Notes: a model not told the origin generated them from the letters alone. 33,829 nt of DNA from Jimgerdemannia flammicorona (GCA_003990765.1 RBNJ01000296.1:1-33829), one strand, 5' to 3'; positions 1,249-31,101 are shown, counted from the first letter of the stretch. Numbers and translations: made by a program.

Positions 1249-3258
1249 TTAGTAACTCAAGACGGTGCATTGGTTTTCCGACTGAAAATTGATGTTAGAC
1301 CGGTCACAGTTAGACCAGTCACCATTCGTCTTCAAGCTGGCGACCCCGGGGAAGACGGTCAAGAGAACTGATCGGTCCTCTTGATGCTCCTCACCCTTTT
1401 TCGATCGGTTGACGGATTGTGTAGCGTTGTGCCAATCGCTCCGTAACGATACGACGCCAGACCCGGTATCTTCGCCTAAGATAGAAATACGGTCGAGGGC
1501 AGTCCCTGCAAAGATTATCGCCAATCCCTCGCCCTCCATGATTTCCATTTGCAAACGAATATGGATACAGGTGTACACGAGAGAAAATATACTAGACGTC
1601 CATGCCTCTTGATCTCCTAGCCGGTTAAGAACATCCATTACAGTCCTGCACCTCAGTATCCAGAAGTCATACAATTTGTCTGCGATATCTGATGGCAAAT
1701 TACAGCTGTGGAATGGGCCATCGCTGAGTGTCATCTCGATACCCGGTTTCGGTAGCTTGTCTATCAGAAGTCTGGCGAATTCCGATTTCGTTCGTGTTAC
1801 TAGAACCTTGATCTCCGACTCCTTGCTTGAATTCGGTCTCAAAGATTGTAATACGGCAAACGTCTGCTCTAACTCGGGGAATATCGTTTCGGCTGGGACG
1901 AACTCGAATACGTCACCGAGAATGGCAGTATCCCAAATAGTAGTCAGTTTGCTGATGATTATATGTTCGATAAGGCGTTTTTGGATGGGTTTGTTGAACC
2001 GAGCAACTCCGGAAGCATTGTTCATCGATACTATGCCACCCACAAAATCTTCATAAAAGCTGCGAATCGTATCTGTTTGCAATGAGTTTTGTGTGATCAT
2101 GTTGTCCACCAATTTGCGCAGGGTCTGATACAGTTTCAACCACGATTGGTTGAACGTAACAGGGTTAACGCCGTCCATCGCATGCAGGCCGCTATTGCTG
2201 CCACCGTCTCCGCTACGTGGGCGGAGGCTTAACTCGGTGTGCAATTGTTTTTCCATTTCCATGAGTTTTCCATACATTGTCGTTTTCTCGGCCGCCAAAA
2301 TTTCGACGTCCTTCAAATGCTGCTCTTGTAGGCGCTTATTCTCGTAAGTCAGTTCGCGGCTCGCGCCGTCTTTTTCAAGGTGAATGACCCTGATCTCGTC
2401 TTCGAATCGTTTGATCTGGCCCTTGCTTTTACGATTTTCGTCTTCGAGTCGTTTGATCTGGTCCTTGCTTTTACGATTTTCGTCTTCGAGTCGTTTGATC
2501 TGGTCCTTGCTTTTACGATTTTCGTCTTCGAGTCGTTTGATACAGTCCTGGCTTTTACGACAATCGTCCGTCAAGCGTTGGTTCTGTTGGCTCATATCTT
2601 TATAACGCTTTTCAAGATCGTTCCAATCTTGATCGAGTGGACGAACGGCTCTGCCTGGGTCTTCTCGGATCTGGCGTTCGGATGTGCCGTTGATCCTTCC
2701 CTTGTTGCCATTGCCAATCGAAAAATGGCTGTGATTCCCAGTGCCTTGAGCGTCGTATATTGAGTGTCGGGTCCGTTTGCTTTGTACTGCTTTCTCGGAA
2801 CCACCTGCATTATGAGACTCGCTAGTAGATATTGCGTTTTGCTTTCGACCCTGTGTTGTGTTTTTGTCGCTGTCGCCTTCGAGTTTGTACTGTGTTGTGT
2901 TTTCGTCGCTGTCGCCTTCGGGCTTGTACTGTGTTGTGTTTTCGTCGCTGTCGCCTTCGGGCTTGTGCTCGGTGTCCTTGCTAACGCCGTTGGTCTCCCA
3001 CCTGCGTGGAGGCTGTTGAGCCTTTCCGTGTACTGTAGCCGTGGTCATAGTTGGCGGGGCTGGTGGTGCCTTGTCCTTGCCGACGGCCTCTTGGATTTTT
3101 TTTGGCTTGGATTGTTGTTTCTTGGTTGGACTGACCCATTCGTAGAATTTCTCTTGGACCATCCCGATAACCCCCGTCGATCGATGAGCCGTTTGCTGGC
3201 CGTTTCGGTCTTCAGACATTTCCTGAGGCGCGTCAGAGGGGAGTTGGGATGTTACCAT
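1249..3258 (-). CDS. Coiled-coil protein (about 669 aa, intronless): disordered N-terminus, heptad repeats, helical region, GrpE-like C-terminal beta motif
   Basis: Long open frame; first ATG at 3258 (MVTSQLP; the track start at 3378 is TTG); K/E-rich heptads; C-terminal SDWHNA...VLLTVFPGV...QCTVLSY. Confidence 0.8.
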   Translation of the reverse strand: MVTSQLPSDAPQEMSEDRNGQQTAHRSTGVIGMVQEKFYEWVSPTKKQQSKPKKIQEAVGKDKAPPAPPTMTTATVHGKAQQPPRRWETNGVSKDTEHKPEGDSDENTTQYKPEGDSDENTTQYKLEGDSDKNTTQGRKQNAISTSESHNAGGSEKAVQSKRTRHSIYDAQGTGNHSHFSIGNGNKGRINGTSERQIREDPGRAVRPLDQDWNDLEKRYKDMSQQNQRLTDDCRKSQDCIKRLEDENRKSKDQIKRLEDENRKSKDQIKRLEDENRKSKGQIKRFEDEIRVIHLEKDGASRELTYENKRLQEQHLKDVEILAAEKTTMYGKLMEMEKQLHTELSLRPRSGDGGSNSGLHAMDGVNPVTFNQSWLKLYQTLRKLVDNMITQNSLQTDTIRSFYEDFVGGIVSMNNASGVARFNKPIQKRLIEHIIISKLTTIWDTAILGDVFEFVPAETIFPELEQTFAVLQSLRPNSSKESEIKVLVTRTKSEFARLLIDKLPKPGIEMTLSDGPFHSCNLPSDIADKLYDFWILRCRTVMDVLNRLGDQEAWTSSIFSLVYTCIHIRLQMEIMEGEGLAIIFAGTALDRISILGEDTGSGVVSLRSDWHNATQSVNRSKKGEEHQEDRSVLLTVFPGVASLKTNGDWSNCDRSNINFQSENQCTVLSY
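2395..2560 (-). repeat. 42-bp coding tandem repeat (about 3.8 copies) encoding IKRLEDENRKSKDQ
   Basis: Near-identical units start at 2407, 2449, 2491 and 2533. Confidence 0.95.
2851..2967 (-). repeat. 39-bp coding tandem repeat (3 copies) encoding (Y/H)KPEGDSDENTTQ
   Basis: Units start at 2851, 2890 and 2929 (ctgtgttgtgttttcgtcgctgtcgccttcg...). Confidence 0.95.
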
Positions 3259-4242: not shown

Positions 4243-7200
4243 ATGACCAATTTGTTGTCAGCATCGCAGCCAAACAGCGTGCAACCGCACTTTGGTCTCA
4301 ATGCCCGAGTTATCGCCGCAATCGACTTTGGGACCTCTCACTCGGGCTATGCAATGGTAAACGATCCCGACATGAGTGATGCTAAAACGAACATGCGTAT
4401 AATGGGAAAATGGCTCACCTCATACCAAAATTAGGTGCATGTCGCGGACCCCAACACTGTCGTCGAAGCACATTACCTGTGGAAGGACCAGCCAGCTCAA
4501 TACAGCAAGAACCTTACGGCTATCTTGTATGAGTATGATACTCCTACGTCAACGCCCATGGTGGAATCGTGGGGCTACACTGGTACGAAGTACTATTATT
4601 CACCCGTCCACCCGCTCACCCTCCCTTATCGATGGTTGACACGTTATTCTGTTCTGTCTGTGGGGTTTTCTCCACACTTAACGCTTCCAGCCAGGAAAAA
4701 CGGTATTAAGACGAAAGCTGCTGACACCTATTGGTACGTGTCTCGCTTCAAACTCTACCTCGACGAGGACGTCGCGAGCACTTTGCCGGCCCTGCCACCG
4801 GGCCGGACAGCGCTAACCGTGATCGCCGATTATCTGCGTAACCTCTACGACATGGCTCTCAAGGATATCCACGGCAGATGGGGTGGAACCGTGACGGCGG
4901 ATAACGTTGTATGGTTCTTGACCGTGCCTGCGATGTGGACAGAAAAGGCAAAGCAACAGATGAGGGAAGCTGCAGTCATGTCTGGACTGGTAAGAGTTTA
5001 ATTAGTACGTCTGCCCAACCTTGCATAGATGACATGTTCACGGAGATGAAATTCATGAATGGTCCGTCACTTTCCGGTATCACAAGGTTTCCGAGAACGA
5101 TAAGAACAATCCCAATCGATTGAACATTGTTTTGGAGCCCGAAGCCGCTGCAATGTTTTGCTGTCAACAATCGCAACAAAATCTGTTGAGCCGCGGAGAG
5201 ACGTTCATGATCGTCGATGCCGGCGGTGGTACAATTGACTTGGTAAAATCAGTTTCCTCTGAACCTCGTTTAAATCGTATGTTGGAGGAATGTTTGGTGC
5301 TCATTCTCTGATCCGTGTATCATCGTCTCTTTGATTTTGAAGACCGTCCATGAAGTCCAGGGCGATCCAAACACTAATCAGGAATCGTTACGAGAAATTT
5401 CTCACGGTAGCGGCAAATCATGCGGATCGACATTCATCGACGAAGCGTTCATCAACTTTGTCAAGGCGAAATGTGGCGCTGATACCATAGACGAATTTCG
5501 GAAGACCTACGTTTCGGATTGGTTGCGAGTAATGAAGGAATGGGAAGAACACAAGGTAATAGGTATTTTCCTATAGAAACACATCACGGATCCATAGTCG
5601 ACAACCATTAAAGGTATAACTGTATTTTTTTTTTTTTTTTTACTTTATCTAGCGTGCGTTCAATGGCGATATGCGCAGTCAAGAAGATATCCCGATTCCG
5701 ATGAAATTGCGCCAGATGATTGAACGGAACAGATTCAAAGACGACGAAAGCGACGAGGATGACGACTTCGAACAGATCACCATAACTGCCGCAGATTTCT
5801 TTGCCATGTTCGACCCCGTCGTCAATAGCACCCTTGACCTTATCGAACATCAGCTTGACCGTAGTATTCGGAATTTGACTCACTCAAGCCTCGCGGAAGG
5901 CCGAAGTGCTGGCGCCTGCAAGATCGACAAGATGTTCTTTGTCGGCGGGTTCTCGGATAGCGAGTACCTGTGGAAAAAAGCCCAAGAGAAGTTCCAATCT
6001 CGTATACAGTTATTCCGTCCAAATGACCCTGGTAGCGCTGTTGTTAAGGGCGCGGTACTGTGCGGCAAGTTTCCACGGTATGCGATGTTTTGCTTTTTTT
6101 TTTTTTTTTTTTTTTGACTGATCCCACCATGCAGTAGTATCGATTTACCAATACCACCTCTGATAACTGAACCTATGAATGTTTGCAATTATAGGTTTAT
6201 AAGTAGCCGCCGCTCCCGTGTTGCATATGGTGTGAAAACATCTGGGACTTGGACAGCTGATAATCCGGCTGGGGAATCCGCAAAGAAATGGATTGCGGTG
6301 GGTATCCCTGAGGCCATTACAGTACATTTGTGAGGTACAATAATAAGCCATCGATATTGAGTGCATGGATAATCAAATACTAATACGGCTGTCTTTATTT
6401 TATTTTATTTTATTTTTTCTCAACCTACAAGTCTGAAGGAACATATTTTGCGGAAAATCTATTCCATCAGATTGTCAATGTCGATGAACTAGTTGGTATA
6501 GATGAAAGAAAATCGACTATGTAAGTACCATTTCTCCGTCGCACATTTTTTCTATATCATTCTCTTCAGGCTTTTGATAATTTGGACGTTACCCATTCCT
6601 TGCGGATGCACAAACCAGATTTGTTCCCGTCCTCACCACTCAAGATTTCGCGACATTGGAGTTATACACGACCGATTTTGCAAACGAAAAATACATGTTA
6701 TCCTCCATGGTCCTTGCAGGAACTGTGCAGGTTCCGCTGTCCAAATATGTAGCGGATATCCACGTGCGCATCCAGTTCGTGCAGGACGTAAGCGGCAGCA
6801 TGGACGGAACCAAACTCGTCAGTTCGCAGGAAGGTTTGAGAAGGATATGTAGGAAACTGTCACAAGGTGACGAGGTTGGTCTCATCAAGTTTGGTGACTT
6901 TGCCGAAGTCGTCAGGTATGTGTTTCATACATTTTCCAATTCATCTCCAATTTTGTGGTTGCTCGTTTCTCGTTTAACGTCGCTGCTTTAATTACAGTGC
7001 CATTCAGCCGTATACAAAGAGTATCTACAATAACATCAACTATTTGCAACCCCACGGTGGGACCGCTCTGTACGATGCCATCTCCATGGGGGTTCAGAGT
7101 CTCAAAAAGCGTGCCGGGCTCTCGCTTGAACAAACGCACCAGAACGTTCTACTAATCTCCACGGACGGAAAGGAGAACTATTCGAGCGCCAACAGTTTTG

Positions 7201-7559
7201 CCGATATCGAAACCCTGCTCCAGAATCCGCTCATTGCCAACTTCCGCCTCGTACTGGCAATCGCGGGGAACGATAACGTGGACGCCAAGCTCGTCAAGCT
7301 GTTCAACTCGGAGAAATGTAAGGCATATTGCGAGGTCATCAACGTCGATAACTCCAGCGAGGGTATCAAGGAGGCGTATACTCAGATGGGTCAGAAGGTG
7401 CAGCTTCTGAAGTCTGGACATTCGCTGGCGAGCATTAATAAGGCCATTAAATTGGAGATGAAGTTTGGAGCAACAGAAGTATCGGCGGACGCGTTCGTTG
7501 CGAATTCTGGGGTGAAAAAATCTGTTTCCATCAAATTTCATGCAAAAAAATCTGATTGA
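4243..7559 (+). CDS. Atypical HSPA12-type Hsp70 (actin-like ATPase) with an inserted von Willebrand factor A domain; 10 exons, 801 aa
   Basis: Exons 4243-4356, 4435-4582, 4691-4989, 5087-5242, 5343-5555, 5653-6077, 6195-6297, 6432-6520, 6619-6915, 6998-7559; all GT-AG, total 2406 nt in frame. Hsp70 motifs AIDFGTSHSG, LTVPAMW, LEPEAAA, IVDAGGGTIDL, CGSTFIDEAF, VGGFSDSEYL, AVVKGAV, SRRSRVAYGV, MKFGATEV. vWA MIDAS DVSGSM, GGTALYDAI, STDGKEN. Confidence 0.88.
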
Positions 7560-8649
7560 TTCAAATTGCAAATTTTAGCGTAGAGTGGGTCGTTTTATGT
7601 CGTGAGGTAAATGAGGAATTCGTTTAGCTTTGATGATTCTGCAAGGAAAATAAAACACGTGTCATTGTGGTGTATGCTCATGTCAAAGGGACCCGGGATA
7701 TGGTCGGACAAGGAGGATGCAGTCAATGCGGAAATGGTGAAGGTGTAGAATATAAAATGTGAACGGTTATCTTTGGAATTTGCACATCATAGGTCATTTT
7801 TTCAGGCTCGACAGGTTGTATTTCGAAGCTTTACTTATGGAATCCCCTAGCGAGGATGAATGGCGTAACATCAATCAGGGTAGTCGTCGTGTCAGTCGTT
7901 TGCGTGTTCCTACTGCCCTGACAGCTCTCAAAATAGAGATATGTGCCGAAACGTTGGGAAATTCCTCGCGTCCCCCGTGTACGCGACATTTCAATGGTGA
8001 AGAGGCCGAAAGTTCGCATCGAAAACGTTTCGACGTGTCCGCTCAGAGAACACCCCTTGGAGTAAAATTTTGGCCGGTTGGAAGTGAGGAGATGATGGAG
8101 TGCGGATGAGATGCTGGGAAAAGTATGAATACGGCGCAGAGACGTGGCGGCAGTCGTGGTCGTGGTTGCACCTTATATCCACTTCCACTTCGTCGCGACC
8201 TCCACTCCGCTTCTCCACATCTCCGTCTCCAGTATCTACCGGTACCTCCAACAATTGCAACCCATATCTGATTCCTCAGGACGCCACCAACTGCTGGCTT
8301 CTTTTTCCTTATCGATGCGAGGAGGGAAGGAGGGGGGGGTTAGAGGATTTGCACGATTTCGATACTCACGTTCGTGGCAAGCTCCGTTTGATCCCTCTGG
8401 TGTTTGGCAGTTTGGGCCTGCCATCGTTGGCACCCTTCACCGCCATGTGACCTGGTTCCCTAGATGTTGTGGAGGCTGACTTTATTTGCTCAGAAGAGGC
8501 ACCTGATCCTGTAAGAGGCATGACTATAGTTGTGTAAGACAGCAAGGCTACACGTTTGCTCATGCTCGCTTGTCATTTCAGTACTCAGTTGCTCATTGAT
8601 CTAAATTTATAAAAATTAAAACAAAAATATTTGTTATTTATGTTATTTA

Positions 8650-11600
8650 GGTCATGACAGCGACTCTATGAAGATAGAGATAATACTTATAATTCTAATA
8701 TAAATATAAATTATAATGTAGGGATAACTCTAAATACAAACCTACCAGTTATAGAAAGATTATTTTTAGGAATTAGGCGCGAATATAAAACATCACTAGA
8801 TACAGATTCATTAGAAAATCACAGATTTCATGTCAGACCTACTTTTGAGCATAGAAGGCCTGGCTCCAAGCCATCTACTACACAGATGAGATCAAGCAAG
8901 CCCTGAAGGATCAGCTTAACACAACTTACCAAGAAATGAGTGAGGATCTAAACACATTCTACACCAGAATCTGATATTAGATAATTCTTACAAATTATAC
9001 TGCCACTATCTGAGATTAAGTAGCTGGGATAATCTTTATGAAAAGAGTTCACCCAGAGATAGTCCTAGCTATCTACTTATCACCAATAGTCTTAGATCTA
9101 TCACAAAAAGTCACTTATGCCCAGTGATACTGGATAGCCAGACACCCACAAGACTATATAATGGAAAGTATCACCAGAGTTAGAATCAAAGCACCTAAGG
9201 CAACTAGTGTGATCCTTACTATAGTAATCAATTAAAATACACCTCAGTCAAGAGCTACTAAGTAACAGAGAAATAGTGACCCTATGGAGGAACTTGTCAA
9301 GAAGTTTGCCAAAATGACAGTTTATCTAGAAGATATGATAAAGAAAATTAAAGGAAGAGACTAGTACCTAGTTCAGAAATTTGCCACTACCTTAGACAAG
9401 AAGATAGATATCTGCTACACTTGCAGAAAAGAAGACTACTACTCATATAAATATATAAGTGAAATTAAGTGCAAGGTCTAGCTAAGTAATACTATTTGAA
9501 ATAAGAAATAGATCAATATCATTATCTTTGAAAAGATTGAGGAATCAGATGAAGAGGAATGGGAAGTCTACTCTGCTGAGACTATCAAGAAAAATATCTG
9601 CAAACAACCCTATAAGAGACCACCAGAGAGATCTAAGAAGAACTCTATAGAAAAGCAGATAGAGACTGCTATGGAAAGTTAAGATAAAGAGACAGATTAA
9701 GATATAGAGCTAGAACAGGCTATTCAAGATATCATCTAAGGAATCACTCTAGCTAGTAAAGAAGAAAAGGAGAAGAAGCTTTACAAAATCAAAACCTTCA
9801 AGTATAATATCTTCAAAGACCTCAGTCAATAAAAGGTCAATACAATCTTTGGCAAGTTGGCAGAAATACTCACATTTAGACAGCAAATGAGATATAGACT
9901 GGCTGAGACAACCAAGAAGCAAGGTTGGAAGATAACCAAGGCCAACAATGTTTAAGAAGACTCAGGAGATGAGAGCAAAGATAATCATAAGACCTCTGTC
10001 TATACAACCTATCAGATTAAAGATAGAATCTTCAAAGCTATCATTGATACAGGAGCAGAAGGATGTCTCCTCAGCAAGAAAGCAGCAGACCACCTAGGTT
10101 GAGAAGTTGAAGAAGTAATCAAATTGGTATTTATCACAGCAGATAGCACAAGAGCCACACCTCTAGGAAAGATCCAAGATATTCCTATCAAGTTTGAGAG
10201 AACAACTATTCTAGTATATATGATCATGACCAATGCCACCAACTATGATATCTTCATCAGCAACCAGTGGCTTTACATATAAAGCCAAGGTAATAATCAA
10301 TCTGAATACCCAGAAGATGCAGATCATCTGCTGAGATCAGAAGATGCAAATTCCCATTAATGTCAACAAAAGAGTACTGCCTGAAATGGAGGAAGAAGAA
10401 AGCAAGCAAGAAGAAGCCTATATAGTGACTACTGAGAAAAAGAAGAAGAAAGTCAGAGAGATCAGTAAAGAAGACTGGTGCAAGAAGATTACAGAAGAAT
10501 ATACACTACAAGGAGTCTGCCTCCATGGAATCAAGATGTACTATAGTGAGCACATTAATGACTGCTACCAATGTAGCATTAGTATCAGAAAGATCTACTA
10601 GGAAAGAAAACAAAAGGCTCTCGAAAAGCAGGCAAGAGAAGAGGAGGAAGAGGATGATGAACCACTAGCCCTTCTGGAGGATAGTGATGATAAAGAAGAA
10701 ATCAAGATCAAGATTTAGAGAATCTACCTCAATGCAGTTCTACCAGAATACAAGTCAGAGAATACAGCCAAAATACAGTAAAAGAAACCATATTAGAGCC
10801 CCAGACAACTACCCTACTAGCAACTGGTCTAGAGATAACCATTCCAAAGGACTATATCAGAATCCTCAAGACAAGAAGCAGCCTGGCTAGGAGTGAAATT
10901 ACAATTGAAAGAGGAGTCATCAATGTAGATTACATTGAAGAAATACTACTTATTGCTAGAAATCACAATTCTATGATTCTATTTCCAATCAAGAAGAAGA
11001 ACCAACTGGTACAGATATTGATCTTCTCAGTTTTTCAGTCAAGAATAATAGAAGTTAAGAAGTTGAAGGAAATGGAAAGAGGAAGGAAAGAATTCAGATC
11101 CATAAAAAGAGGAGTATTTGCTAGTACCAAGATTACTGAACTGGATCACAAGAAGGAAGAAACTACAAACAGAGATAGCTATACTATTGGAAATAAATTT
11201 CCACTCAAGAAGGAACTCAAGAAGATACTCTATGAATTCAAGGATATCCTAGCCATGGATTTCAAGGATATCAAAGAATAGATCCCACACTACTATTATA
11301 ATGTAGATATACATAGAAGATACTGAACCAATCTATCAAAAAGCAAGGCCAATACTATCAGCCTACTGTAAATGGCTCAGAGAAGAAATCAAGCAGATAA
11401 AAGAAGCCAGTATCATTAAAGAAGCCAGCAGTCCCTGGGCTTCACCAGTTGTACTAGCTCCAAAAAAAGAAAGCAAGCCAGGAGAATTTGCCCCAAGACT
11501 CTGTACTGATTATAGGAAGCTTAACTTAGATATCAAGAAAGATTATCAATCATTACCTCTTATTAGTGATATCTTCATAATCTTAGAAGATGAAGTACAG

Positions 11601-14600
11601 TACTATAGTATCTTAGACCTATAATCAGGATTCTACCAAATAAGCCTCACTGAAGCAGCAAGCAAAAAGTCAGCCTTCATCATCTCAGATAGAACCTATG
11701 TCTATCTGCAAATACCATTCAGAATGTGCAATGTCCCTACAAGCTTCCAGTGAATAATGAACAAAATCTTCCACTATGATATGGGAAGATGGATGATAGT
11801 TTATATAGATGATATTATTATCTATAGTAAGATAGCTGAAAAATATCTACAGTATATCCAGCAGATGATAGAGAAGCTAAGATAGTATGGTCTTTACATC
11901 AAGCCCAAGAAGTGCAAGTTTGCAGAAATTGAGATTATCTATCTTGGCCATATCATTAATCAAGATGGAACACATACAGACCCCCTCAATATTCAAGCAG
12001 TAGCAGTATATCTAAGGCCTACCACAGTTACTGAAGCCTAAGCCTTTATGGGACTCACCTCTTACTACTAAAGATTTATCAGAGAATTCTTTAATATCAC
12101 AAATCCAATCTATGAACTCAATAAGAAGGATATTAAGTTCTAATAAACTGGTAGATAATAAAAAGTATTTGATAAACTTAAGGTCAGACTGATCTAGGCA
12201 GCCATTCTCAGAAGACCTAATTGAACTCAAGAATTTATCCTATAGATAGATATATATAAGTACCTAAGAACTAGGAGTAGTCCTGGTCTAGAAGAAAGAT
12301 AAGATAGAATATATTATCACATATCTTAGCTGAGGAGCTCAAGGAGCTGAAAAAGAGTATGAATCCTATAAGCTGGAATATCTTGCAGTTATCTGGACTA
12401 TAGAGAAGTTCCACTATTATCTAACAGGAAGATACTTCACCATTCAGACAGATCACTCAGCCCTCACTTAGCTACTGACCACTGGGTAACCTAAAGGAAT
12501 CTATGCTAGATAGATCATAATTTTGCAAGTCTATAATATAACTATTGTGCACTACTCAGGAAAAATCAATGCCAATGTAGATACTCTCTTACAGATACTC
12601 CAAAGGACCCCCAATCAGTAAATCAATTATGAATAAGGAGCTCTACTACAGAATCATTATCTATCTGAAATAGCAAAAGATGCCCCAACATCTGGAAGAA
12701 TAGACACAAATGATTATCAATAGAATATAAAAACAATTTGAAACTGATAGAGAAATACTAAAGAAAGAAAAACTACTAGTTATACCTAAATATAAGAATG
12801 AGCAAGTAATGAAATCAGTATATAAACTTAGCTATCTAGGAGGAATAAATACATATGATAAAGCAAGAAGAACAATATAGTGGTCAGGAATGGAGAAAGA
12901 TATTAGACAATTTGTCAAGATCTGTGATAAATATCAGAAACAGAAACAAGACTAATGAAATCAGACTCTGGAATCAGCACACATCAAACTAATATTCTTT
13001 ACACACATTGCAATAGATGTAATCACCTCTTTACCCTTGACTTTGATGGACAACTAATATATCATAGTTATTGTAGACCTTTTCACAAAATAGATAGAGA
13101 TAAGACCTCTCAAAAAAGCCAATACACAGTCAATTGCTAATTTTTTCTATAAAGAAATTATCTGCTGATTCAAACCCCTAGCACAAGTAACTACAGACAG
13201 AGGAACAGAATTTGTGAATTAGTTCTTTAAGATTCTCTATAAGAAGTATAAGATCCAGCACATTTGGACTATAGTGTACTATTCTTAAGAAAATGGACAA
13301 GCAGAAAGGACCAATAAGACTCTCAAGAATATCATTATCAAGATCTGCAATAATTATGAAAATTGGAATCACTATCTGCCAATAGTATTATTCACTCTTT
13401 GAGATATCTAATCACAAAGTATTCATTTCACCTCTTGAGAGATGCTGTTTAGAGAAGAAAGTTCTCAAGAAACTCTATTGTCTAATAGAGATACTATATA
13501 GAAATACATGAATACAGAGATATGAAAACTATATCAAATTAGAAAGAAGGCTGAGAATTATATAACCAAGGTACAGATACTATAATAGAATAATGCAGAA
13601 AAGATTTACAAGACCCTAGAGATTATCAAGATAGGAAATAAAGTTCTGGTATATTGAAATATAATAGAAGCTTCATGATTATAAAAACTGAAGCCTAAGT
13701 AGGAAGAATCTTATCTCATATAAGATATAAAAGAAACTACCTTTTGGCTATAGAAACTCTCAAACACAATCATCTCTACTATCATTTACTGAAACCAACT
13801 CAAGAAGTATCATGACTAACCAATAGAGTACTGTCACAGCCCTCAAGATCATCAGTGCTACATAGTGAGCTATAGAAAGACAATAGTATATTACTGAGCT
13901 ACTGACCATAGAAGAATCCTTTGACAGTATACAGAGTATAGTCCAGACATACTTGTTATAAATCTCATACTTCAAAGTCTATTAGAACTGAACTGAGTTT
14001 CAAGAATACTTCAAGTTGAGACAACTACTAAACTCACAGCTAGATATGGGAAAAAAAGACTAGATTAGAGTGTGTCAGCTCTCTCATGCTCAGATCACAA
14101 CTACTGAATGAGTCAATAAGATATTCAAGAATGATGAGCTGGCCCTAGCCTATCTTCATAAAGTAGTCTCAGGAGACTTTGAATATATCAAGAGATATTA
14201 CTGAGAGTATATAATAATACAAATTACACAATATAAGAAGATATAAATTGTAGAAGCTTAGAAGTTTGAATAGGATATTTCAGAGATAAATCACCTATTT
14301 AAGAGGAAGTTATAATGGTCAATCCAAATTAAGAATATGAATCAGAAGAATTAGACATTTGATCATGGTACCTAAACTCAATTTCTGATATAGTATAGTC
14401 TTACAAACAGCAGTTATTGTTATTTTACAACTGTTAAAGTTTTCACAAATGTTAAACTTTTTGCAAATATTAAACTTTTAGCAATTGTCAAAGTTTTAGC
14501 AGATATTAAAAGATTTAACACTTGTGAAAAGTAACTCACAGAAAACATAATTATAACTTAGCCACCCTAGAGTGAGCAAATTTATATAAATATCCCAATA

Positions 14601-14792
14601 TTTAGAGTGAATAAACCTCAGATCAAAATAGTTCAAGTAAAGAGAAAGCAAAGAAACTAGTAAGCCTGCAGGCAGATACACTTCAAACTCACTCCTCTGT
14701 ACCCTGAGGACTCTGCAAGAGTCAGAACAAGTCAAGTTTTCAAGATACAGAAATCCACCATACTTCTGAGGTTAGGCATCTGCTATATTACA
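8650..14792 (+). mobile_element. Degenerate Ty3/gypsy LTR retrotransposon (gag-PR-dUTPase-RT-RNaseH-INT plus an extra 3' ORF); many stops; boundaries approximate
   Basis: Decayed zinc knuckle CYTCRKEDYY (~9413); protease AIIDTGA (~10036); dUTPase TGL..IP, RSSLA, GVINVDY (10820-10945); RT SSPWASPVV, RLCTDYRKLN, LDL*SGFYQI, VYIDDIIIYS (~11800); RNaseH TDHSAL (~12450); integrase VTTDRGTEF, NGQAERTNKTLK (13187-13327). The RT-RH-INT order is gypsy type. Confidence 0.93.
14523..14792 (+). repeat. Putative 3' LTR of the gypsy element
   Basis: TG...CA bounded, TATA-like box and AATAAA; shares agagtgaataaacctcag with 22057-22074; no matching 5' LTR or clear PPT found. Confidence 0.35.
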
Positions 14793-15115
14793 ACAGTAAG
14801 CACAGTAAGCACAGCAAGTATAGTAAGCACAACATGCATAGCAAGTGCAGCAAGCACAGTAAACACAGTCAATACTGTAAGAACAACAAATATAATAAGT
14901 ATAGCAAGCATAATAATACAGTATTTATTAATAACAAATATATATATAGTAATAAACACAATAAGTACAGTAAGCACAGCAAGCATGGTAAGCACAGTAA
15001 ATACAGTAAGTATAGTAAGTACAGTAAGTGCAGTAAGTGCAGTAAGCACAGTAAGCACACAGTAAGTGCAGTAAGCACAGTAAGCACAGTAAGTGCAGTA
15101 AGTACAGCAAGCACA
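14793..15115. repeat. Degenerate 9-bp satellite (agtaagcac)n
   Basis: Repeated agtaagcac/agtaagtgc/agcaagcac units; it generates the spurious CTY/VLT ORFs. Confidence 0.85.
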
Positions 15116-17488
15116 AATACAGGTAGTATGAATGTCAGAAATTATTATTTGAGAGTCAGAGCAGAGTAATCTGGTAGGTGGCATGAATGTCAGAAATTGA
15201 TAAGACATTATCGAAATACTAAATAGTTAGATGGATAATAGTAGGATATATCAGATAGTTGTTTATTATAAAGTATCTGTAGTGAGCACAGTAAAAATAT
15301 ATATGGCATACATTTATAGAGTGGTACTTTCATATAATGGGACCGGAAAATCACTTGCAGATGTAGAATATGGAGGGTGTGCATTTAGCTACAGGTCCAA
15401 GCTTGGGACTGAGCCTGAGCGTGCACTTAGGGAGGGTGAACTGTATCCCCTGATTGTTGTTCCTAATTTGGATCAACCGTCATATTATTATAATTAATTC
15501 ATGCGATGTGGAAGGAAAACCTCTTGTGATTATGGTGATCTCTAAAGCACGTTTGCAAACTCGTGTAACTCTTAACTGGCTTTCAATGATGGTAGAACTT
15601 GTTCAGTGTCAACAATAATCTGCCGCGTGAGTTATGCCTATATATATATATATATTGCCTTTCTAAAACGGGTTCGATTATTTGGCTGATCCACGTTTCG
15701 ATTTTGCGCTAGCTCGGAAATGTAATTTGGCCCATTCCGGTTAATTAAGCACGAAATTAAAACGTAGGGTTCACTAATCCCGAGGTAAGCAGTCTCGTTA
15801 TTAACAGCGAGAATCCGAGGAGGAATTTTATTCTCGCATATGTGCTTTGTGCAATGTACTGGTGGTTGTACCTTTGCATAGACAGCTACTTCGAGTCATC
15901 CGTTGTGGAAGAATCAAAGCCTCATGAACAGTCCCAGTCAGATTATAGTGACACTTTGAGTTGTAATAAATAAACGATTTAAAATCGTCAGTATCAGTTG
16001 TCACAAACTTCGACCAACAGACACCAAAATGTAATTATCCTTCGCTGCGCCCCAGACATAATTAGATAGCAACAATAACCTAGAATGAGACGATTTTTAT
16101 GTCATCCGACTTGGCGGTGGAAACCGACGTACTATATAGTCAACGTGTCAAACTGCTTTCCTGACCATCACGTGCTAACGACATGACTATGAGAACATTC
16201 ACCTGTAAAAACAGCTTTTGACCCTACCTGCCGTCGCCATTACCAACCATATAACCTGATAGTCTCCAATGAGTACGTCTATTTATTTTTTTCATTGCTG
16301 TATAGGGTAGGGAGTTCGGGAACACAGGAACGAAATCATGTCTCGATCGAGAGACTTGATCAAGATTGTGACATTACATGACCGTGACAGCCTGGTGGCC
16401 CGATGATATGTGGTCTGGGAGTTCGGTGATTTTCACGGTTTGTTTACTGCAGTTAATACCACAAAACAATAACGATTAACCGCAGAACACCATAACCGGC
16501 GAACGATGACGAATAACTGTGGAAACAATAACTTACTGTATGAAGGGTTATTGTTTTGCGTCTCGCGTAAACACGTCGTGGTCACTCAAGACTCGAGACG
16601 TCTCGGTCTCATTTGGAGCACTGGGCAACATTTGACTCCCTTTTACGATTCTCCTAGTTTTAAATTAACCATGGAACCACAGCTGCTTTACATATAGTGT
16701 AAGGATGTAAATACAATACCTCTGATCAAAAAACCACGAGCTAGCCCCCTGCAGTCGCATACAAAATAATCAGGTAGATCTCTCTTCCATAATTAAAAGT
16801 TACACGGTGGGATGGAATGATAAATTTGCGGGCCTGGTACATATAAAGACCTTCCCAAATGGATTTCAAAAGAATTAAATATTTGTCAATCGGCGTGTTT
16901 TGTTTACTGCGGTCCGAATTTAATGTTCCCGGGCGTTGGAACGGAATGACGGATGTGTTTCTGTAAACCCGACCCGACCCGCCCAAATTTAGAAACCCGT
17001 ATAATTGACGGAATTGATCCTCCGAACGTCTCGCTCTTTCTCCGAGGAGACCGAGGAGACCGAGACGATGACGTAATCACGTGTCTCGCACGTAGCTGCG
17101 ACAGGTGATGTTTTGTTCCATTCCGAATTGGTGGTTTTGGCCTGTTGGAGTAGATTATTATATTGGATTTTTCTATGAGAGTAGCCGCGGAAATGCCTAT
17201 TAGGCAAAATTAATTCTACACACGCTTTATCTGGTAGAGATTTCTGCGTGCAGGAAATCCTACTGGACTATTTTGGTTTAGATCGACTGAATTGTTTCAT
17301 TTGTGTGGGTTTCGGCAACTTCGTTTATGAGTTTCACGGCGAAATAAACATGGCTGTGTGACGCTAAAGAAGGCTGATGCGGATGATAATATAAACACAT
17401 GGAGGGGTTTGCCATCCGCAGTTTATATTATAAAGGGTCCGTTTGTCCTTTCCCAAACCGCAGAGCCACCTTCCAGACCTTGCCCAAT

Positions 17489-19128: not shown

Positions 19129-19269
19129 CCAGAGTTCTGTAAACCATGATCTTTATTGCAAACATAAGCATCTATGATGAATTGTCACATGAGTCTGAGC
19201 TAAAGAAATGGCAGTCTGTTCTCTCTCCTTTATCCCCACTTGCACCTGCAACAACCTTTCTATACGTCT

Positions 19270-19912
19270 CCTCCCTTGCCATTTTGCCGAAATTTCCCTC
19301 CACTGCCAAGTTTCCGTTCCCTCCCCCTGCTGAGTTTCTGTTCCTTCCACCGCCAAGTTTTCTTTCCTTCCACTGCCAAGTTTCCATTTTCTCCACTGCC
19401 GAGTTTCTATTTCCTTCACTCCCGAGATTCCGTTCCCTCCACTGCCAAGTTTCGTTCTCTCCACCGCCAAGTTTCCATTCCCTCCACAAAGTTTCTGTTC
19501 CCTCCATTGCCAAGTTTCTGTTCCTCCACTGCCAAGTTTCTGTTCCCTCCACCACCAAGTTTCTGTGCCACGTTTCCGTTCCTTACACTGCCAAGTTTCT
19601 GTTCCATCCAGCGCCAAGTTTTGTTCCCTCCACCATCCACTGCCAAGCTTCCGTTCCCTCCACTGCCAGGTTTCCGTGCCCTCCGCTGTTCCCTCTTGCC
19701 GCAATTTCCGTCCGCTGCCAAGTTCCATTCCCTCTTGCTGCAATTTCTCTCCACTGCCAAGTTTCCATTCCCTCTTGCTGCAATTTCCCTCCGCTGCCAA
19801 GTTTTCGTTAGCTGCAATTTCCCTCGGCTGCCAAGTTTCTTTTTGTCGCAATTTTCCTCTGCCGCCAAGTTTCCACTTGCTGCGATTTTTCCTCCGCCGT
19901 CAAGTTTCTGTT
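19270..19912. repeat. About 23-bp degenerate minisatellite (ccactgccaagtttctgttccct)n
   Basis: Roughly 25 gccaagttt-cored units; explains the overlapping low-complexity ORFs on both strands. Confidence 0.85.
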
Positions 19913-20569
19913 TGCTGAGATTTTCCTCCATCATGGGCGTACTGCGTATGCACGTGCACTCGGTCAGTTCGCAATCGCGCAATCGAAGTAGCGGGAAAAG
20001 AGATATATATGGAGGCAGGTGGGAGTGCAAATAAATGCAAGAGTGATGATGAAGATCTGAAACCCGGTAAATCAATTATCGTGGCCTTTGACCTGGATTC
20101 GGCCGAGATATACTTTGCTCTTTGCTGATTCTCTATCACTTCGTCAAGGTATGATGGATTCTCACTCAATACATTCCCTGCTATTCTTCAATTAATCAAG
20201 ATGATTGTATAGTCAGGCTCTTCCTTGTCCGAATTCCTTTCATATCCCTTGTCCAAATTCCCTTCCATTGTCCAAACCCCTTCACGTTCTTCCCTCACCC
20301 GAATCTCTCGTCCGAGCCCGTTCTGATTCCGACCCTGCCAAAGTTGGGCACCGAAGTGTCACTCTAGTTTTCAGCGTTCTTCTAATTTCATATCTCTCTT
20401 TCCAATTCCATCATCACTTCAACGCTTTCTGACACGGCGTTCGCAATCTGATCCCATCTTCCGTTCTAATTTCTCGAATATATTCTGCCTGCCGCTCAAG
20501 TTCAACACAGCCGATCCAACACCGATGACATTATATTTTGAGAGCTCAGCAAGTATAACTGTATCTTGG

Positions 20570-28845: not shown

Positions 28846-31101
28846 TTAAGCATTTGATTTCTTGGGGAATGGATTGCGGGACGGGCAATGCGCATTTTGC
28901 AGCTGCACGAAGCCATTCGCGTGGCTCGCGGCGGGCGTGATTTCGCGCTTCGCCTTTCTGGAGGTTGAGTTGAAGCACTAAAATAACAAAATTATTCGGA
29001 TATTAATTTAAAGCGGAATTAGTTCAAGGACACGAGGACAACACGAGAGTGGAACCCACCTTTTTCCACAACTGCCTCTCCTTCATCTCCCAGATTTTTC
29101 CAGTTTTTGCCTTGGACCAGGGACCGATTTTACCTTCGACCCCCCAGTCGAGCTTAACGTCACCATCAACTCCAACGCAGGTGTGAGTGACCTTGCCCGA
29201 GGAAGGTTTGAAATTGGAATTACCGCGAGCAGTCAACCCCGCCGACAGCATCAGTGCGAGGTCGGCTTTCACTGACCCTCCAAAAACGTCCACTCCGATA
29301 CCGAGCTGTGGCTCCAGAGTCTGGGTAAGCTTGGCACCAAGTTCCAACTTGTCGCTGAGCGTGACGTTAGCAATGTTCTTTCCTTGGGAGGTTAATTGCG
29401 GGTCCTCACTAGCGCCAATTGAGATTTCAACCGTGGGGGAGGTGAAAACCGTATTAATGCTTACGGATCTGTAGTAGGTAGATGAAGGCAGCTTTGGTAA
29501 GTAAAAATTATTTTGTGTTTGACGATGACATATAGAATGTGGCTATAATTATGCATACCCATCCAAGGTGATTGTTCCCATCAGATTGGAGTCCATTTTA
29601 AAGTAGGGGCCAATTGCCAACAGGTAGGGATAATTCAAACCCGGCAGCGTTGTTTTTGGTATAATGGGGATAGTTAACATCGGAGAAGTGTATTGCACAA
29701 GGCCATCCAAGCTCAGGGTGGCCTGGGCATCAAGCTCGCCCCCTAGAGGTTTAAAGAGAGATGTCAGAAAGAGAAAATTCGAAAATAATTTCATTGGAAA
29801 CTAAAAAAGCACTAATACTTACTCAGGTAGGCAAAATGCTCTTTGATTTTGAGCGGGAGAATGGTCCCAGTGACGTAGTAACCAAAGTGCGCGGAGCCTG
29901 TCAGTTTTCTGGTGAAGAAATGTAATTACCGAATTCAGTGAAAGAGATAACTTTTATTAGAAACGATGCACTTTCCACAAGAGCAGCTTGTTGAAAATCG
30001 ATTTTGAAGATAATGGAAGCATACCCTTTGGCGTCAATCGACAGCGACATTTTAAAATCATGGCATTGCTTCGACAACGTAGCTAGTTTCAGCGAAAAAG
30101 GTTCACTGATAGACCCGGACTTAGTACCTTTCGCTATCAAGATATTGTGCGCGTGGCTATTACTCTTGATGCTCGTTAACCTGAAAGGTTCATTATTGTC
30201 ATTGTTATTAAATCATTAGATACAGCATATTTCTAGGACAAAAGTTGCACGTTAATGCTTGAAAATGACTTGTAAAGTACCAGGCATCATGAGAACGTTC
30301 TTTTCCGAAATCTGTATTGTCAATATATCCAGCGACATTGCTAAATTCCATAAGTATCGTCGTGGGCACCTCCTTACTTTCGTTGTATGGAATTGCTTCG
30401 AAATCGTAATCAAACTGGGAGTTTTCGAGGTATATAAGACCAATTAAATACTTTGATATATTATAACGTAAAATAAATGTACCAGCAAGAATGTGGACGT
30501 ACCTTGATTTCGTAGACGGAAACGTTTTTTTTTCCGATTTTCTTCGTTAGAAACGACGGGAACTGCCCAGATGATTTCGGTACAAAGCTCACGACGTGCA
30601 CGAAAGGAGATCTTCCGCATCCGTCAGGAAGTTTAACAATGGTGTCTTTCGCGCCGCCGATGAAAATGCCCGAGCAGTTGGCCGCTTCCGCTTCCGCGCA
30701 ATAGGCGAAAACAACCTGGCTGCCTTGGTCGGAAGCATTGCATCCGACCAACGTCCACGAAGACGTGACTTGGTGAAGATCAGCGAGGCGCGACGAAGGA
30801 CCGGCGATCGTGATTCCGCCTTGGATATCCAAACTCTCTCCACGAGCGTAGCTGCGGGCAACTTTAGACTTGCCAAGGATGTGGGTCAGCTCGACAATTG
30901 TGTCGGATGACTTGGATTTTTGCACACGAGCAGCAATGGAGCCTGATGGAAAGGACCACAGTATGGTAAGCAATTTGGGATTAAGGCTTCTCGGAAAGTC
31001 GTGAGTGCAATAAGTTGCGTACCCGACGGATAAGCTGCAGCCACAGAGCTATACAGCATAAGGCCCAAGAAATACAGGGAAAGCAGTCCAGCTTCCTTCA
31101 T
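28846..31101 (-). CDS. Secreted, Cys-containing, beta-rich fungal protein of unknown function; 8 exons, 539 aa
   Basis: Exons 31101-31023, 30942-30503, 30414-30281, 30180-30025, 29908-29823, 29742-29559, 29468-29060, 28977-28846 (1620 nt, in frame). Signal peptide; WTLVGC, GAKDTIVKLPDGCGRSPFVHV, FDYDF, LPGLNYPYLLAIGP, LWKKCF. From memory it resembles a module in fungal secreted proteins and in C-terminal extensions of some GH18 chitinases. Confidence 0.8.

Follow-up and report, generated by a model that had tools for sequence, protein, structure and literature searches.

A von Willebrand Factor A Domain Inserted in the C-Terminal Beta-Domain of an HSPA12-Type Hsp70 from Jimgerdemannia flammicorona

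Gene Structure and Transcripts

A 33,829-nt stretch of DNA from the root-associated fungus Jimgerdemannia flammicorona (GCA_003990765.1, RBNJ01000296.1:1-33829; hereafter the window) carries on its plus strand, at 4243..7559, an HSPA12-type Hsp70 gene in which a von Willebrand factor A (vWA) domain lies inside the C-terminal beta-domain of the chaperone. The gene has 10 exons (4243-4356, 4435-4582, 4691-4989, 5087-5242, 5343-5555, 5653-6077, 6195-6297, 6432-6520, 6619-6915, and 6998-7559), and removal of nine GT-AG introns leaves a single open frame from an ATG at 4243 to a TGA at 7557-7559, reproducing the 801-aa length given in the initial annotation of this DNA. The product is 47% identical across aa 5-799 to an annotated homolog of 797 aa (P0272). 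An actin-like nucleotide-binding domain (NBD; 4318..6072, aa ~26-450) is followed by the linker and the first five strands of a beta-type substrate-binding domain (SBD-beta; 6202..6739, aa ~455-556, in exons 7, 8, and the start of 9), the N-side linker of the insert (6740..6763, aa 557-564), the vWA domain (6764..7409, aa ~565-752), the C-side linker (7410..7439, aa 753-762), and the resumed Hsp70 tail (7440..7541, aa 763-796), which holds the last three SBD-beta strands and an MKFGATE motif. The motifs quoted when the insertion was proposed all occur at their places in the spliced frame: FVPVLTT (6620-6640, aa 517), LAGTVQVPL (6713-6739), IQFVQDVSGSM (6770-6802), GGTALYDAI (7056-7082), STDGKEN (7158-7178), KAIKLEMKFGATEV (7440-7481), and SIKF (7527-7538).

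Splicing was examined in contigs of four sequencing runs matched at 90% likeness, two of them root metatranscriptomes and two RNA by guess; word shares were small in runs X3-X5. RNA-type contigs support introns 1-4 and 7-9 by joints and introns 5 and 6 by compatible loose ends. Introns 1, 2, and 4 are spliced in near-identical contigs; spliced contigs ~90% identical to the locus, and hence paralogs or strain variants, run across both insertion borders and the joints between exons 7 and 8, 8 and 9, and 9 and 10. Intron 9 (6916-6997, 82 nt, GT-AG), which lies within the vWA domain, is marked by a joint at 6912-6995 (cut +3) in run X2 and by a loose end at 6915 in run X4. Among the rows listed, no contig spans the whole gene and none near-identical to this locus covers exons 8-10. 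The exon 8-9-10 junctions, for which RNA evidence had been called for, were thus recovered at both joints, in the ~90%-identical contigs only; these same contigs run across the exon 7/8 joint and both borders, so that the transcripts do not show the Hsp70 and vWA parts as separate genes. Spliced homologs from other samples (P0123 and P0126) hold the strands, the vWA domain, and the tail in one chain, as does P0272.

The vWA Domain Interrupts the Hsp70 Beta-Domain

The 5' border of the insert falls inside exon 9 and the 3' border inside exon 10, and the sole intron between them interrupts the vWA domain itself; because both borders lie inside exons, neither depends on splicing. Exon shuffling at intron borders is not supported, as neither border coincides with an intron. 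A sister paralog on contig C301 has its last intron at the identical position and an 89-aa last exon without a vWA domain. In the genome search, its residues 2-43 match window 6617-6742 and its residues 43-86 match 7410-7544, two collinear matches flanking the insert (E 0.005 and 0.03). The empty-site match therefore ends within the N-side linker, which forms the first half of the opened loop and is variable among paralogs, and resumes at the first base of the C-side linker. A search for paralogs with other domains or none at this loop had been suggested; the C301 gene supplies the empty loop, and no other domain was seen there in 8 own-genome loci or 104 measurable database proteins.

The tail was compared with uninterrupted HSPA12-like fungal proteins, of which 111 of 120 hits were retained (length >=480; a DxSxS[MT] motif in 0/111). 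A hidden Markov model (HMM) of this set matches aa 22-547 of the window protein at E 2.9e-99, and the sole other matched stretch is aa 765-787 (E 0.049). As a single sequence the tail gives weak scores (E 0.05-0.06). As a profile of 17 own-genome rows it matches the last strands of the 111 proteins in hhalign (probability 66-74%, E 3-6e-5), with a score reached by 0 of 100 column shuffles; a control profile from the vWA part gave no match to the same proteins by hhalign. The tail profile also matches the end of an HSPA12-like protein encoded on a Streptomyces plasmid (35% identity, probability 81%). A MAFFT alignment opens one long gap at the insert unprompted, and the spacing from strand beta5 to the MxFG motif is 20 aa in 97 of the 104 measurable uninterrupted proteins versus 215 in the window protein (five of the seven deviating proteins are parsing failures, and 7/111 proteins without the motif were excluded). 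We discarded a mixed alignment of 131 rows (A2) in which the NBDs were misaligned. The profile comparison, the MAFFT alignment, and the split paralog match agree in aligning the MKFGATEV segment with the HSPA12-type C-terminus.

These data, together with the structure models described below, confirm that the vWA domain is inserted between SBD-beta strands 5 and 6 rather than appended, with three Hsp70 strands after it, as the initial annotation had held. Were the domain instead appended with an unrelated tail, or the Hsp70 and vWA parts separate genes, one could point to the weak scores of the tail as one sequence, to the lack of near-identical contigs for exons 8-10 among the rows listed, and to public models that sometimes call the vWA part alone (P0122). 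Set against borders that both fall within single exons, an empty paralog that matches in two flanking pieces, a tail matched by profile and by structure, and three homologs (P0123, P0126, and P0272) with all parts in one chain, this alternative has a nearly negligible probability.

Structure Models and the HSPA12-Type Host

The NBD contains IDFGT, EPEAAA, DAGGGT, and VGGFS, which carry the divergent Hsp70 motifs DxGT, EPxAA, GGxT, and GG listed for HSPA12-type proteins (PMC12692333; this and the other PMC papers are cited from partial texts). Pfam matches of single NBD exons (E ~0.1) were treated as chance. The linker and strand beta1 align to DnaK DVLLLDVTPLSLGI; the linker itself reads FISSRR, and the hydrophobic DVLLLD linker of canonical DnaK/Hsp70 is not found. 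The C-terminal beta-domain finishes in MxFGxxE strands, with neither a helical lid nor an EEVD motif, and the chain stops 5 residues past the last strand.

An AlphaFold2 model of P0272 (pLDDT 83) contains five strands (456-464, 487-496, 507-512, 521-529, and 542-550), then the vWA domain, and then three strands, terminating with strand 785-791, which aligns to DnaK 506; together they make up the eight-strand SBD-beta sandwich. Residues 23-797 of the model superpose on DnaK 2-506 (4b9q; 459 aligned, root-mean-square deviation [rmsd] 5.0, Z 31), versus ~345 aligned residues for NBD-only chains, and the DnaK NBD fits at Z ~30-32. The best fits are ATP-docked forms of DnaK/BiP (rmsd ~5), with several undocked forms at ~20. 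The Atlas's own P0272 model, which is independent of the alignment used for AlphaFold2, aligns 555 residues (19-797) to a 592-aa Hsp70 with a TM score of 0.86 by target and, model against model, 554 residues (4-795) to a chordate HSPA12A cluster with a TM score of 0.71 by target. The proposal that the insert occupies a loop of the substrate-binding-like domain is borne out by the SBD-beta fold of the host in these models. The opened loop is most likely L5,6, as suggested by the 5+3 strand count and by a weak profile match (E 0.053) to the GIPxxxxG loop of DnaK-type proteins, which we take to be L5,6. Both L3,4 and L5,6 are outer loops that latch the lid (PMC8215388). The family shows the C-terminal domain of HSPA12-type proteins to be a genuine SBD-beta, able to accommodate 195 inserted residues in one of its outer loops; it was earlier described as a complete substitution of the substrate-binding domain (PMC2266713).

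The Inserted vWA Domain and Its Metal Site

Exon 9 alone matches Pfam VWA_2 (E 2e-5), and a paralog frame containing exons 9 and 10 matches Pfam VWA (E 2.5e-9); a PDB sequence search with exon 10 gave chance-level matches only. Fold comparison identifies a complete Rossmann-type vWA fold, with 170-198 residues aligned and Z 19-21 to ITIH1, vWF A1, and others. The MIDAS (metal ion-dependent adhesion site), described at the outset as intact, is indeed so: D572, S574, and S576 form the DxSxS motif (6785..6799), T637 follows (7059..7064, together with G636), and D671 completes the DxSxS...T...D set (7164..7181, together with the loop that follows and contains Y676). DxSxS is kept in 15/15 own-genome exon-9 rows, and the MIDAS threonine and aspartate are kept in 12/13 exon-10 rows.

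In a subgroup of the family (L013:1236-1844, L015:3698-4309, L028:706-1305, and L027:691-1245; P0121 and P0124), the loop directly before the MIDAS threonine is extended by as many as 20 residues, which may be either a longer specificity loop or an unrecognized in-frame intron.

An Expanded Family with a Narrow Range

Exon 9 is present in the genome in at least 18 copies, 17 of which have a tail match within 1.2 kb; the tail of the 18th was found by separate inspection of its locus. One own-genome paralog agrees at 100% identity across 413 aa with a protein labeled Jimgerdemannia flammicorona, which by that label places the genome in the Endogonales. An exon-10 profile search among 1.84 billion proteins gave 150 listed matches, six of which cover the vWA domain and the tail (E <1e-30), with two more being partial models. 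The named holders of this combination among the matches listed are Jimgerdemannia and Endogone, that is, Endogonales only; the next vWA relatives are either free-standing or joined to CCCH fingers, U-boxes, or alpha-kinases, and those with a name carry protist labels. Word-index protein searches, a weak method that missed P0272 in its first round, returned full-length relatives in 0/772 and 1/1815 cases (P0179), and a metagenome contig scan with the exon-10 profile yielded 75 pattern hits and no confirmed one.

In gene trees rooted with fungal and one bacterial outgroup, the C301 gene nests among vWA-bearing genes, and monophyly of the latter is not rejected (approximately unbiased [AU] test, p 0.19); its vWA domain was either never present or lost. 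This family member (L020:2475-2741, minus strand), with its empty loop and retained partner gene, offers a natural control. Elsewhere, one contig (C5766, L019) bears two convergent copies, in one of which exon 6 is frameshifted, intron 9 stays in frame without a stop, and the C-terminus is shortened, and another contig (C2523) bears degraded family copies with intact-looking partners.

Diversification around the MIDAS

Divergence of the vWA domain and SBD-beta was measured over the 8 closest (young) paralogs, with metal ligands excluded from the face loops. Nonsynonymous divergence (pN) was 0.267 on three MIDAS-face loops versus 0.098 in the rest of the vWA domain, 0.089 on opposite-face loops, and 0.059 in SBD-beta, with synonymous divergence (pS) of 0.22-0.31 across the compared regions; the MIDAS-face value was reached by 12 of 5000 random window sets. 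At a threshold chosen after the data had been seen (pN >=0.5), 8/28 face sites qualify, a count equaled in 0/1000 neutral simulations at matched pS and reached in 3/1000 at inflated pS. Because the face windows were drawn after the alignment had been seen, we also ran window-free site models. M2a is favored over M1a (284 codons, 8 sequences; 2dL 18.1, p 1.2e-4), with omega 4.4 on 3% of sites, and the sites with posterior >0.8 are G575, within the DxSxS motif, D578 (6803-6805), beside it, G636, and Y676. All four adjoin metal ligands, so that selected sites make up 4/33 of MIDAS-adjacent positions versus 0/251 elsewhere. Without two damaged copies the result holds (p 7e-4), and M8 versus M8a with free branch lengths gives p 3e-5, with 7 of the 11 sites >0.5 on the MIDAS face. 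The pairwise homoplasy index (PHI) gave no signal of recombination (p 0.14 and 0.51). The family is expanded, spliced, and transcribed, and it keeps its metal ligands while the residues around them diversify.

A cluster of fast NBD sites lies at aa 318-351 (window 5674-5775), in the region of subdomain IIB; exchange factors of DnaK bind in this region.

A Head-to-Head Partner Gene

On the minus strand at 1249..3258, 984 bp from the Hsp70 ATG, lies a divergent neighbor with a single frame of ~669 aa that encodes a coiled coil and a conserved C-terminal domain. Each of the 11 own-genome matches to this partner shares its contig with, and is oriented divergently from, an Hsp70 gene of the family or what remains of one, and the C301 gene without a vWA domain has a partner as well. 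Over 8 pairs, partner and NBD distances co-vary (Mantel r 0.88, 2/40320 permutations); the partner evolves ~2.3 times faster than the NBD, and 2/5 tree splits are shared. Complex prediction for P0272 (20-795) with the C-terminal 220 aa of a partner, run without alignments and with the partner fold uncertain, scored 0.00 and speaks neither for nor against an interaction.

The partner has short tandem peptide repeats at about 2350-2570 and 2830-2990. Its conserved C-terminal domain is GrpE-like by eye only, with no match to GrpE in Pfam, PDB, or profile comparisons. The HSPA12-like gene on the Streptomyces plasmid (NZ_CP107922.1, L174:5019-7527) is directly followed by a 229-aa gene whose end is GrpE-head-like by eye; the latter has no Pfam GrpE match and no profile match to the fungal partner.

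Proposed Role of the Insert and Alternatives

We propose that the vWA domain probably selects targets for the Hsp70 ATPase. This reading builds on the architecture, the intact MIDAS, the diversifying rim, the pairing, and the splicing, and from them we infer a function. The insert would hang from L5,6, one of two outer loops beside the client groove where the lid of an ordinary Hsp70 latches; since the two ends of a vWA domain lie on the side away from its MIDAS, it can hang from this loop with the MIDAS free. A target protein would offer an acidic side chain to the Mg2+ site, its choice being set by the rapidly changing rim, and a nearby stretch of it would be gripped by the SBD-beta groove. 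Through its ATP cycle, and possibly with help from the head-to-head partner, the NBD would dock and undock SBD-beta, so that the target is released or remodeled, and each paralog would serve a different target. A rapidly changing rim is as expected if the vWA domain picks varied target proteins, which lends indirect support to the suggestion, made from sequence in the initial annotation, that it might act as an integrated sensor or adaptor; a non-self target, in defense or recognition, is plausible. Integrin I domains bind an acidic residue through Mg2+ (PMC6275225), and for human HSPA12A nucleotide-dependent binding to acidic clusters of SorLA has been shown (PMC6345817), an analogy that would be compatible with a selector role and is no proof of it.

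Several observations weigh against this reading or the evidence for it. The C301 gene keeps an open last exon without a vWA domain, so that not every member of the family requires one. The codon models are our own implementation, applied to 8 sequences of which two are damaged, and their posteriors are naive. An NBD control (7 young paralogs, 363 codons) also favors M2a (p 0.01), with omega 1.9 on 15% of sites, scattered; part of the vWA signal may therefore be family-wide relaxation. Fast evolution is a general trait of the family, with the vWA signal standing out by its sharpness and not by being unique. The AlphaFold2 alignment for P0272 contained uninterrupted homologs, which makes that test partly circular. 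A model from vWA-bearing rows only has a well-folded vWA domain and beta parts at pLDDT 45-76, and it gave no usable test of sandwich closure, its top 50 fold matches all being vWA chains. The L5,6 label depends on strand counting and the weak profile match.

The vWA domain might instead bind the head-to-head partner or another self protein, with the rim tracking a fast partner in a self-recognition or toxin-antidote style module. The linkage of all 11 partner matches, the co-varying distances, and the faster evolution of the partner suit this idea, which we nevertheless consider unlikely: the C301 gene keeps its partner, so pairing does not need the vWA domain, only 2/5 tree splits are shared, and joint duplication alone would yield co-divergence. 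Quite unlikely in our view is a structural substitute for the lid, placed over the groove to slow client release, with the MIDAS holding a same-chain or client residue. In the models, the domain does hang from the loop that latches the lid in DnaK (PMC8215388), and a vWA domain sits at the place of the lid in bacterial DnaK-type proteins (24 of at least 119 pattern loci); yet uninterrupted HSPA12-type proteins manage without a lid, and a purely structural cap is not expected to diversify exactly at the MIDAS rim. Damage among the many copies (the C5766 frameshift and the C2523 remnants), the raised NBD omega, and a possible clean loss on C301 would fit a passenger domain that entered a surface loop long ago, was tolerated there, and now drifts under the relaxed selection of a redundant family. 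That the metal ligands are retained down to ~36% identity, that omega exceeds 1 only at the rim, and that the count of 8/28 fast face sites was matched in 0/1000 simulations make such drift very unlikely.

If target selection is correct, clients of an HSPA12-type ATPase would be identified by pull-downs with paralog vWA domains, and a new form of non-self recognition in fungi might emerge as well. Very little is known of what HSPA12-type proteins do, and the family supplies handles on it: a metal site that can be inactivated by one or two changes, four presumptive specificity positions (575, 578, 636, and 676), a sister gene that naturally lacks the vWA domain and can serve as control, and the linked partner. 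The lineage is narrow and the function conjectural. A bolder version of target selection, which we hold to be doubtful, is that early-diverging fungi possess an intracellular recognition system of paired genes based on Hsp70. The vWA domain would then be an integrated sensor whose rim is locked in an arms race with non-self proteins (from endobacteria, viruses, other fungi, or the plant host), the Hsp70 ATPase would be a switch, and the partner its dedicated exchange factor or executor; if true, this would be a chaperone-fold counterpart of plant NLR-ID pairs.

Comparison with Known Systems

HSPA12-type Hsp70s, namely vertebrate HSPA12A/B, the ~553-aa Mucoromycota proteins labeled "Hsp70 family/actin-like ATPase," and the Streptomyces plasmid protein labeled "Hsp70 family protein," share the divergent NBD and the lidless MxFGxxE beta-domain; here, by contrast, ~195 extra residues, a whole vWA domain, occupy the beta5-beta6 loop, and the genes are expanded and paired head to head. 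HspA12 proteins are described as lidless and without known function in a review whose partial text does not mention vWA domains (PMC13580251). Bacterial DnaK-type Hsp70-vWA fusions (Bacillota, Actinomycetota, and Myxococcota Atlas clusters; L055-L133) likewise combine an NBD, SBD-beta, and a MIDAS-bearing vWA domain in one chain without a lid. A scan with a pattern designed for the appended form yielded at least 119 loci, of which 25 were flagged and one (L068) dropped as false; in 24/24 of the remainder the vWA domain comes after a complete DnaK-type SBD-beta and ends the chain, an arrangement that the window family does not share. As the pattern could find the appended form only, inserted bacterial forms are not excluded. 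The bacterial Hsp70 part matches Pfam HSP70 at E 1e-133, whereas P0272 does not match at 1e-3. The inserted vWA domains form one clade (support 98) and the bacterial ones another (100), and a joint clade is not rejected (AU p 0.35).

The vWA domains of integrin I domains, inter-alpha-inhibitor heavy chain 1, and pilus adhesins have the same fold (Z 17-21) and also hang from a loop of another domain. Those are adhesion proteins of the cell exterior; in the window family the insert is hosted by the client-binding domain of a cytosolic-type Hsp70, which is coupled to an ATPase. Rice Pik-1/Pik-2 NLR pairs resemble the window family in logic only, with an integrated domain, a head-to-head pair, and positive selection (PMC8294853). 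A head-to-head pair and selection in the integrated domain are both present here, without NB-ARC or LRR, and the NTPase has an actin-like Hsp70 fold rather than a STAND fold. Prokaryotic conflict systems (MoxR-vWA ternary, GAP1-N2 GTPase, and CoCoNuT type III) bring vWA domains and Hsp70-like ATPases together, along with GrpE; in these predicted defense loci vWA and Hsp70 are separate genes, and the partial texts describe no vWA insertion into Hsp70 (PMC7159879, PMC11090510). A term search of a fungal immunity review found neither hsp70 nor vwa (PMC10197012), and Hsp70 expansions in chytrids and Glomeromycotina are reported in a paper whose partial text does not mention vWA (PMC8778642). In our literature searches, with supplements outside their scope, nothing was found on a vWA domain inserted into an Hsp70.

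Other Features of the Window

Simple and minisatellite-like repeats with long spurious frames lie at 14664-15226 and 19143-20075. On the minus strand, 29024-31048 holds two exon-like frames for a cysteine-bearing protein with no Pfam match above the cut-off. The region from about 8600 to 15000, of low GC content and with decayed frames, includes a dUTPase match at 10694-11278 (E 4e-12) and looks like an old mobile element.

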